Assembly: GCF_030384885.1 (NCBI RefSeq)
Contig: NZ_CP128613.1
Length of the DNA: 64,000 bases
Strand: one strand, 5' to 3'
Source of the DNA: Escherichia coli
GTDB taxonomy: Bacteria; Pseudomonadota; Gammaproteobacteria; Enterobacterales; Enterobacteriaceae
Made by a program: the position numbers and the translations under genes. This document shows positions 48,862-51,167 of the stretch, piece after piece. The notes beneath the pieces were generated by a model, which worked only from the letters and a program-made list of their open reading frames with translations, was not told the DNA's origin and ran no database searches. Positions within the stretch are counted from its first letter, which is position 1, and each line of letters opens with the position of its first letter.

Positions 48862-49476
<615 letters not shown>

Positions 49477-49496
49477 TCTTCAACAGGAGGATACGC

Positions 49497-49724
49497 ATGC
49501 CAACTCAAGAAGCGAAAGCTCATCACGTCGGTGAATGGGCATCTCTGCGCAATACGTCGCCGGAAATAGCCGAGGCCATTTTCGAAGTCGCCGGGTACGA
49601 CGAAAAAATGGCGGAAAAGATTTGGGAAGAAGGTAGCGATGAAGTGTTAGTCAAAGCCTTTGCTAAGACCGATAAAGATTCGCTTTTTTGGGGCGAACAG
49701 ACCATCGAACGTAAAAACGTTTAA
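49497..49724 (+). CDS. yccJ: Small protein YccJ (75 aa)
   Basis: 75-aa ORF 20 nt downstream of wrbA. Confidence 0.85.
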
Positions 49725-49732
49725 TCCTGAAC

Positions 49733-49759
49733 CTCCCCCGTAGTGAACGGGGGAGTTTT
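49733..49759 (+). terminator. Rho-independent terminator after yccJ
   Basis: ctcccccg-tagtgaa-cgggggag followed by tttt. Confidence 0.75.
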
Positions 49760-50259
49760 CGATTATTCATTGACCAACGTCTCATGTCCTGTTATTACTG
49801 TGAGATATTCAATCACGTTATCAAATAAAAAAATCGATATCATTGCGGTAAGCTTGTTATTGATTATAAATATGGGTAATAAGCGATATCCAGCATGAAT
49901 TTGATTGTACAGGGTATTTCCTATATAGCCATTGGTTAAATCTTGAAGATAAGATACCTCCGGCTGAAAAATCCATCCCGGCAATGAAGGATGTGATATT
50001 TTCGTAATTCTCTTGCAGAATAAACAACCCTGGATACGCTCTGAATACAAGGAAATTTTCCAATAAATTATTTATTCATCAATACTCCCCGGCGAGGATC
50101 ATCAAAATATCTCATTATCTTTTAAAACTGCCCAGCCCGTTATAACGGACGTTATCTGGCGCACGCTGAAGTGGGCATGATACTCACTTTCATTAAAATG
50201 CTCGACATGATTTGCTAATCGCTTAGCTAGATAATTGACGTTCAGTCTGTGCCAAATTT

Positions 50260-50619
50260 TTAGCGAAAAATAGCAAATTTAAGCCGGGAATTTATCAAAG
50301 CATCCTCATTTACTTCACCATGAACAATAAAGTCACGCATAAACTGCAGGTGTTTAATTAATAAAATCCATTCACTTTCAGTAAGATAGTTTTTCCCACG
50401 CAGATTATAATACAGAGATTTGATTAATGGGATCTTCTGCTTATGGCGCTTTGACCGCGCTGAGCACAATATTTGTTCTATCAGGCCAAGCGTCCCTTTC
50501 TGACGCAACCAGCACCGGAGTTCAGACTGCGCGCTAATGCCGCGAGCCACCGACAAATGTATTTGGGTAAGCAATGCGTATAAACCTAATAAAAACGCGT
50601 CGTGATAATACCGCTTCAT
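50260..50619 (-). CDS. Hypothetical protein (119 aa) in an AT-rich insertion; C-terminal R-x4-H-G motif (HEPN-like?)
   Basis: ATG at 50619 preceded at 12 nt by the previous ORF's TAA and an SD-like GAGGTGGG; translation MKRYYHDAFLLGLYALL...HLQFMRDFIVHGEVNEDALINSRLKFAIFR. I recognise no family; the reading frame is open in a very AT-rich context. Confidence 0.5.
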   Translation of the reverse strand: MKRYYHDAFLLGLYALLTQIHLSVARGISAQSELRCWLRQKGTLGLIEQILCSARSKRHKQKIPLIKSLYYNLRGKNYLTESEWILLIKHLQFMRDFIVHGEVNEDALINSRLKFAIFR

Positions 50620-50631
50620 TACCCACCTCTG

Positions 50632-51000
50632 TTATCGTAATTTTTTAAACAAATAATCATATAAAATTTCGGCAATGAATTCTGCATGTTCACGTCGCAC
50701 AATGACATTCATAACGTAATATTGCGCAGCAATTTCATTGATAAAATGTTCAGGCAGTATGAATACGCGTGCATAAGCCGAGTATATTTCCAGTATTTCA
50801 TTTGAGATGTTTTCAAGATCAACGCAATAATTTGTCACATCATAAAAAAGATTAGCGTATTTTTTATTAATTATGCTAAGGCATATAAATGGGGCATTTA
50901 ATTTTTCACACAATTGCCAGTGCGTTCTTTCATTTTCTCCCTTCCATGTATACTTCATTTTGTCAGCCATCCTTTGATTTACGCGTCTGAAGTTTACCAC
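50632..51000 (-). CDS. Hypothetical protein (up to 122 aa; start may be GTG 51000 or the internal ATGs MADK / MKYTW) in an AT-rich insertion
   Basis: Open frame immediately upstream of and co-directional with the 119-aa ORF; candidate -10 TATAAT on the minus strand at 51036-51041. No family recognised. Confidence 0.45.
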   Translation of the reverse strand: MVNFRRVNQRMADKMKYTWKGENERTHWQLCEKLNAPFICLSIINKKYANLFYDVTNYCVDLENISNEILEIYSAYARVFILPEHFINEIAAQYYVMNVIVRREHAEFIAEILYDYLFKKLR

Positions 51001-51098
51001 TGTGTCTGGGGTAAACCATGCGTTCTATGGTAAAAATTATACGAGATGTGGCGCTGCGTAATATTCTGCTCCCTCAATATATTTCTGGTGAATATGTT

Positions 51099-51131
51099 CC
51101 AGGTTAATTGGGAAGATCTGCATGTGATCTT
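51099..51131. repeat. Perfect 13-bp inverted repeat aattgggaagatc-N7-gatcttcccaatt
   Basis: Seen directly; lies ~40 bp beyond the agp stop at the edge of the AT-rich insertion; candidate terminator or protein-binding palindrome. Confidence 0.6.
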
Positions 51132-51167
51132 CCCAATTTTATGACTACAAAATGTCAATAGCCGGGT

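Follow-up and report, generated by a model that had tools for sequence, protein, structure and literature searches.

A low-GC cassette between agp and yccJ

The window analysed here is a stretch of 64,000 nucleotides of an Escherichia coli chromosome, in which a small cassette interrupts the gene order rutG–ymdF–wrbA–yccJ, cassette, agp–yccE–cbpA. The cassette comprises 1443 bp from the yccJ stop codon to the agp stop codon (49725..51167), and its GC content is ~32–43%, compared to ~50–55% in the flanks. The genes yccJ and agp are convergent with the cassette in between, and K-12 has only 37 bp at this site, essentially a shared terminator hairpin. On the yccJ side, the edge of the cassette is marked by the yccJ terminator hairpin, CTCCCCCG...CGGGGGAG followed by a T-run (49733..49755, plus strand), whose counterpart is retained in K-12. 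On the agp side, it is marked by a conserved perfect hairpin, GGGAAGATC-N7-GATCTTCCC (51109..51133), right after the agp stop codon. As the latter has no T-run on the agp strand, agp transcription may run on into the first cassette gene, ORF A. An Rfam scan of 49400..51400 returned no RNA family, and a promoter and terminator scan gave a number of sites not above that in shuffled controls.

Comparison with other genomes showed that the ancestral cassette consists of three genes, A, B, and C; across the seven Escherichia cassette sequences compared, A alone is intact every time. Five of 5426 complete E. coli genomes carry the cassette, every time at the agp–yccJ site, and the other 5421 (99.9%) do not. 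The closest match, 99.9% identical, is from the human stool isolate 2013C-4282. The agp–yccJ position is common to E. coli, E. fergusonii, E. albertii, and a divergent Escherichia lineage, with nucleotide identities of 84–96% among the cassettes, and no integrase, recombinase, or transposase gene was found in the E. coli cassette or its flanks. On the simplest reading, the cassette is an old, horizontally derived acquisition of the genus, as its low GC content suggests, which was later lost from most E. coli. It would then have been inherited at one site in E. coli, E. fergusonii, and E. albertii, deleted in nearly all E. coli, and be decaying in the window. Alternatively, it may have spread via recombination of its flanks. 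Of the named species, E. albertii alone has an IS element beside the cassette, an IS3-family element in place of gene C (L010, 6928..8299), and on a metagenome contig (L007, 2..103) an IS66-type transposase fragment is found directly upstream of ORF A, suggesting that the cassette attracts insertions.

The neighbouring gene yccE (52704..53957, minus strand; 417 aa) is likewise low in GC (~32–38%) and matches two PHROG families without assigned function (E 6e-135 and 5e-44). Its length varies, with 351 aa in E. albertii and 446 + 69 aa in E. fergusonii.

ORF A most likely starts at ATG 50958

The open frame of ORF A extends over 50632..51000 on the minus strand and would encode 122 aa from the GTG at 51000; the in-frame ATGs at 50970 (MADKMKYTW) and 50958 (MKYTWKG) would give 112 and 108 aa, respectively. 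The original prediction had the frame and its internal ATGs right and called the start ambiguous, an ambiguity that comparison with homologues largely removes. Distant homologues begin with MKY, MKF, or MNY in register with M15, which corresponds to ATG 50958, and PGAP also calls the 108-aa form (WP_000878101.1), both of which argue for ATG 50958. In addition, the toxin-linked homologues described below have the stop codon of the toxin gene directly upstream, so that a longer form is impossible there. From these alignments, the start is best placed at ATG 50958, giving a predicted protein of 108 aa (MKYTWKG...KKLR; 50632..50958, minus strand) that belongs to an unnamed family and has no toxin gene upstream. 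The stretch from the GTG to this ATG (50959..51000, minus strand), which is conserved across Escherichia, is then most likely a 5′ leader and not coding.

The sole Shine–Dalgarno-like string, AAGG at 50971..50974, abuts ATG 50970 and is 12 nt from ATG 50958; with a match this weak and this widely spaced, the translation signals of ORF A are weak. A conserved TATAAT hexamer (TATGAT in E. albertii) at 51036..51041 on the minus strand, ~80 nt 5′ of the ATG, is a candidate −10 element. The consensus promoter scan did not report this hexamer, which has no good −35 element, and it found no consensus promoter for ORF A.

ORF A belongs to a conserved family of small proteins

ORF A had no significant match in Pfam (none below E 0.01), NCBIfam, PADLOC, or PHROGs, and no Pfam or NCBIfam profile of a named immunity family (Imm1–Imm74, SUKH/SMI1-KNR4, and others) matched it. 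A DNase_II match in Pfam (E 0.018) was rejected as chance. A literature search by protein accession found no paper. Word-indexed homologue searches with A, B, and C gave Escherichia matches only and proved insufficient; the family became visible when 1.84 billion cluster representatives were searched exhaustively with phmmer, which recovered 51 representatives (E < 1e-3) from several phyla. Nearly all members of this family (family A) are ~110 aa long and align end to end with ORF A. An alignment of 39 family A sequences contains the conserved blocks HW..C.K...PFI, IFYD.T, IS...IY..Y..FF, and Y.F.F.V..EHAE.IA..LFDYL.

Among the Escherichia copies, dN/dS of ORF A is 0.09–0.26, with dS up to 0.37, and ORF A is under purifying selection across the genus. 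The AlphaFold2 model is a compact alpha/beta domain with a mean pLDDT of 95.3 and a pTM of 0.85. At 108 aa and with no hydrophobic N-terminus, the protein fits a predicted soluble intracellular protein. A PDB sequence search with the family A profile gave chance matches only, and in a fold search with the ORF A model the AFDB50 neighbours were all ‘Uncharacterized protein’, with no nucleotidyltransferase among the matches. Family size, conserved blocks, the confident model, and low dN/dS together indicate that ORF A is a real gene. The original prediction was right to see in this frame a genuine small protein, so far unannotated and of the antidote type. The reported lack of a minimal nucleotidyltransferase signature was likewise confirmed, with no NTP_transf match in Pfam, no G-S/G...D-x-D in the alignment, and no such domain by fold.

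Family A genes follow one Rhs toxin tip

Family A members directly follow one ~95-aa C-terminal Rhs toxin tip on the same strand. Of 12 toxin copies examined, all 12 have a family A ORF directly downstream, most after 0–10 nt and all within ~50 nt. On one metagenomic contig (L016), a YD-repeat/Rhs protein ending in ...DPLGL plus the ~95-aa tip is followed 6 nt later by a homologue with 42% identity to ORF A. Two Pseudomonas genomes (L019 and L020) have the order ClpV–VgrG–DcrB(Eag)–PAAR–Rhs, where the Rhs protein is 1431 aa long, and then a homologue after 3 nt; Paracidovorax avenae (L021) has VgrG–DcrB–Rhs and then a family A homologue. The three Rhs tips, from L016, Pseudomonas, and Paracidovorax, are homologous to one another (71–80% identity), and the tip has the pattern KSTGR..RN.NE.FA..H.K.HPENG...IGDP.FKGKGW.KME...VHYMAK...T.VTDFK.KD.

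In the reverse test, a profile of the toxin tip was run against one genome per species for 100,044 species. It returned seven loci, from Pantoea, Providencia stuartii, Thorsellia, a Flammeovirgaceae MAG, two Neisseria, and Lysinibacillus, and at each of the seven a family A ORF was found downstream within ~50 nt (hmmsearch E 1e-31 to 1e-41). A tblastn search of plasmids added a Phytobacter plasmid (L037), on which an orphan Rhs fragment with the same tip is followed by a homologue 54% identical to ORF A, in an array with AHH/Imm43 and TNT-type modules. Furthermore, three of the 5426 complete E. coli genomes (JNE120442, 200164, and E04) carry the order vgrG–DcrB–Rhs(toxin tip)–family A homologue next to ansP, and after it come orphan HNH/SMI1-KNR4 modules and SymE genes. 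In JNE120442 (L043; NZ_AP027254.1, 1655760-1660690), the Rhs protein is WP_286356113.1, whose last 95 aa form the tip, and the immunity homologue, WP_083575851.1, is 52% identical to ORF A.

Starting from family A instead, about half of the contexts have no toxin (L017, L018, and L022–28); they include Kingella, where 3 nt separate the gene from the preceding mfd, as well as a Pasteurellaceae genome, a contig of high GC content, and several metagenome contigs. A toxin that is always accompanied by a family A gene, and a family A gene that sometimes stands alone, is the pattern predicted by a toxin/immunity relation. The toxin tips are 64–83% identical to one another, compared to 31–52% identity between the immunity proteins and ORF A. 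From this gene neighbourhood and homology, ORF A very likely belongs to an Rhs immunity family. The proposal that it is the cognate antitoxin of the downstream gene does not agree with these data, as family A co-occurs with the upstream Rhs tip (12/12) and, among the homologues checked outside Escherichia, not with B, and the idea that ORF A could itself be the effector fits poorly with a gene that is encoded after the toxin in every linked case.

The toxin tip had nothing significant in Pfam, NCBIfam, PADLOC, or PHROGs, and a PDB sequence search gave chance matches only; as neither partner matches Pfam, NCBIfam, or PDB, the pair appears to be undescribed as a family. Family A proteins would neutralise the ~95-aa toxin domain of Rhs/YD-repeat effectors, several of which are encoded in T6SS vgrG–DcrB/Eag–PAAR–Rhs loci. 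In toxin-bearing bacteria, the immunity gene at the toxin end would shield the producer and its kin.

In three of the toxin-less contexts (L022–L024, 2790..6998; metagenome contigs, with a protein cluster that includes Kingella oralis), the mfd gene that precedes the family A homologue by 3 nt, with no toxin nearby, is called at 1402 aa, ~250 aa above the usual length. A faint Hint_2 match in this long mfd may mark an intein.

Genes B and C are pseudogenes in the window

The original prediction treated ORF A as the first gene of a two-gene unit with a 119-aa ORF downstream, which it took for a possible HEPN toxin. Developed in full, this reading makes A and B a type II toxin–antitoxin pair, with B as a HEPN-like RNase and A as a non-canonical antitoxin, or with the roles swapped. 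The arrangement of the genes is compatible with such a pair, since A and B lie 12 nt apart on the same strand, B has a strong Shine–Dalgarno sequence, and the two travel together in all Escherichia loci. In addition, the predicted structure of B is all-helical, and its sequence includes an R-x4-H string.

The 119-aa ORF (50260..50619), however, is a frameshifted remnant of one of the three genes of the ancestral cassette. Gene B is a pseudogene with a 172-aa frame (50102..50619, minus strand), preceded by the Shine–Dalgarno sequence GAGGTGG 12 nt after the ORF A stop codon. A 1-nt deletion between 50281 and 50280 truncates its product to 119 aa, and the remaining 53 codons run in another frame to 50102. 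The homologues in E. coli N96 (intact, 172 aa; WP_000833426.1), E. fergusonii, E. albertii, and the divergent Escherichia lineage are 172–177 aa long, and strain N3 has a separate 1-nt deletion in gene B, 11 bp from that in the window. The presumed toxin has thus become a pseudogene in the window and independently in N3, with ORF A intact, which argues against a toxin–antitoxin pair.

A HEPN identity for B is also poorly supported. Both the 119- and 172-aa forms had nothing significant in Pfam, NCBIfam, PADLOC, or PHROGs, including no HEPN profile match. The structural model is poor (pLDDT 64.5) and all-helical, and it matched generic helical bundles, with a HEPN chain at rank 34. The sole homologue outside Escherichia, in Proteus mirabilis (29% identity; E 2e-5, 7.3 Gb searched), has G and E in place of R95 and H100 of the R95-x4-H100 string. 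This homologue has its own ATG and occupies the position of an immunity gene, immediately behind an orphan Rhs C-terminal tip. In the P. mirabilis record NZ_OL790811.1 (L036, 7503..8477), the tip reads in frame into the B homologue with no stop codon, and 728 contigs also have the 159-aa B homologue annotated as a protein of its own. The frame may represent a fused toxin–immunity ORF or internal initiation; an assembly error was considered and rejected, as the same sequence is present in many contigs. The Proteus toxin tip had a weak Tox-ART-HYD1 match that is not significant (E 0.51), and no family A relative was found beside the Proteus B homologue. The record NZ_OL790811.1 is a 4-Mb chromosome filed as a plasmid.

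Gene C (~100-aa frame; 49763..50079, minus strand), of which E. coli N3 and the divergent Escherichia lineage have intact copies, is also a pseudogene in the window. Its frame is disrupted by a 2-nt deletion between 50074 and 50073, right after the start codon, by an in-frame stop codon, and by another frameshift. Searches of Pfam, NCBIfam, PADLOC, and PHROGs with gene C gave nothing significant, and hhalign related it to Streptomyces proteins of ~115–130 aa (probability 96%, E 1.8e-9). Of these Streptomyces relatives, one starts 12 nt downstream of a ‘polymorphic toxin-type HINT domain’ protein and one adjoins an SMI1/KNR4 immunity gene. Intact copies of B and C have dN/dS of ~0.2, suggesting that all three cassette genes were functional in the past.

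No relative of B or C was found beside the family A homologues checked outside Escherichia. This separation of A from B, and of A from C, suggests that B and C are independent orphan immunity-type genes in an array and not parts of a toxin–antitoxin operon. Given the lesions in B, its lack of HEPN features, and its lack of linkage to A outside Escherichia, we consider a toxin–antitoxin pair very improbable. Our preferred reading of the cassette is an array of three orphan immunity genes in decay.

ORF A is a probable orphan immunity gene with a possible present-day function

Neither the 64-kb window nor any of the Escherichia cassette loci gave a match to the toxin profile. No toxin remnant was found in the 210 bp between agp and ORF A by examination of three frames and with the toxin HMM. 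The toxin is thus absent from the window, making ORF A an orphan immunity gene. Ten toxin-linked homologues share 12 invariant residues (H13, W14, C17, P23, F38, D40, S52, Y62, Y81, V87, H91, and L99), every one of which is present in ORF A, and the near-invariant F83 is replaced by Met in the Escherichia copies.

These residues include a set of His, Trp, Cys, Asp, and His that could be viewed as an active site, in which case family A would be a small enzyme or cofactor binder that reverses or pre-empts the chemistry of the toxin. The same residues could equally be structural or form a binding interface, no catalytic family was found by sequence, and the fold matches are too weak to carry meaning. 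We therefore regard an enzymatic role as extremely improbable.

Taken together, we think it probable that ORF A is a cytoplasmic immunity protein against one ~95-aa Rhs C-terminal tip, present as an orphan and as the only intact gene of a three-gene cassette. If still active, ORF A would be expected to block the toxin tip by binding it once it reaches the cytoplasm. It would thereby shield the cell from neighbours firing this Rhs protein, which could be rare E. coli strains, Phytobacter, Pantoea, or Providencia.

Whether such protection would extend to the toxins now in circulation is a matter of specificity. Immunity is often highly specific, and with 31–52% identity to the linked immunity proteins, cross-protection by ORF A is uncertain. 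The good conservation of the toxin tips (64–83%), on the other hand, makes it plausible. Protection by divergent orphan or non-cognate immunity proteins has been shown in published work (PMC12247911; PMC12483513; bioRxiv 10.1101/471110). We put a present-day protective function of ORF A, which presupposes its expression, at about even chances.

The counterpart of this view is that ORF A is the relic of an immunity gene, which protects against no existing toxin and is intact either because little time has passed or because it was recruited elsewhere, for a housekeeping or regulatory role. The loss of the cassette from 99.9% of complete E. coli genomes, the decay of its neighbours B and C, the divergence of ORF A from the linked immunity proteins, and its weak translation and promoter signals are all in line with a relic. 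However, the low dN/dS over dS of up to 0.37 points to long-term constraint in lineages with no toxin at the locus, and none of the 12 family-invariant residues has been lost. Furthermore, A is intact in 7/7 Escherichia cassette sequences, with independent lesions in B and C, and the toxin circulates in E. coli and other Enterobacterales. On this evidence, a relic appears unlikely, and an immunity protein that is still under constraint remains our preferred reading of ORF A. The locus as a whole may be on its way out, given the rarity of the cassette and the two pseudogene neighbours of ORF A.

A broader version of the immunity reading would make the cassette an ancestral, non-mobile ‘immune memory’ of Escherichia, with three unrelated orphan immunity genes that vertical descent has preserved as a defence against the Rhs and other polymorphic toxins of Enterobacterales nearby. 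ORF A would then be cross-protective at ~50% identity, perhaps by chemistry via the invariant His, Trp, Cys, Asp, and His. This proposal is speculative, and we judge it to be decidedly unlikely in this complete form.

Comparison with known immunity systems

ORF A resembles RhsI-type immunity proteins in being a small, predicted cytoplasmic protein whose family members lie within ~50 nt downstream of the variable tip past the Rhs PxxxxDPxGL boundary, and family A is also found in orphan toxin/immunity arrays. It differs from them in that the window copy has no adjacent toxin or rhs element and lies between housekeeping genes. The cassette can also be compared with the AID/rAID clusters of gut Bacteroidales (bioRxiv 10.1101/471110; PMC12247911), in which unrelated immunity-type genes likewise stand in a row with no toxins, the orphan copies diverge from the toxin-linked ones, and the proposed benefit is defence against the effectors of other bacteria. 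Unlike those clusters, the cassette has no flanking recombinase or mobile-element genes in E. coli, and it occupies a fixed chromosomal site in three Escherichia species, where it is being lost and not spreading. By analogy with RdnI, a cross-protective non-cognate immunity protein (PMC12483513), the same benefit may be proposed for ORF A. Like HEPN/MNT (HepT–MntA) type II/VII pairs, the locus has two small neighbouring genes of the same orientation, the second of which (B) encodes an R-x4-H string. It differs from such pairs in that A lacks a nucleotidyltransferase domain and B is a pseudogene with no HEPN match, whose motif is not conserved in the Proteus homologue.

Rhs immunity and orphan immunity arrays are already well known, and the toxin/immunity family itself was previously undescribed. 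The analysis offers a testable function for two ‘hypothetical protein’ families, the ~95-aa Rhs tip, which spans Proteobacteria to Bacteroidota and Firmicutes, and its ~110-aa partner. A few E. coli lineages, including the human stool isolate, would keep the antidote without the weapon, which is carried by three other complete genomes. This distribution bears on the part that divergent orphan immunity genes may play in antagonism between strains of enteric bacteria. For annotation, a plausible HEPN toxin–antitoxin call has been corrected and two pseudogenes have been flagged; RefSeq lists the truncated 119-aa form of gene B as an ordinary CDS.
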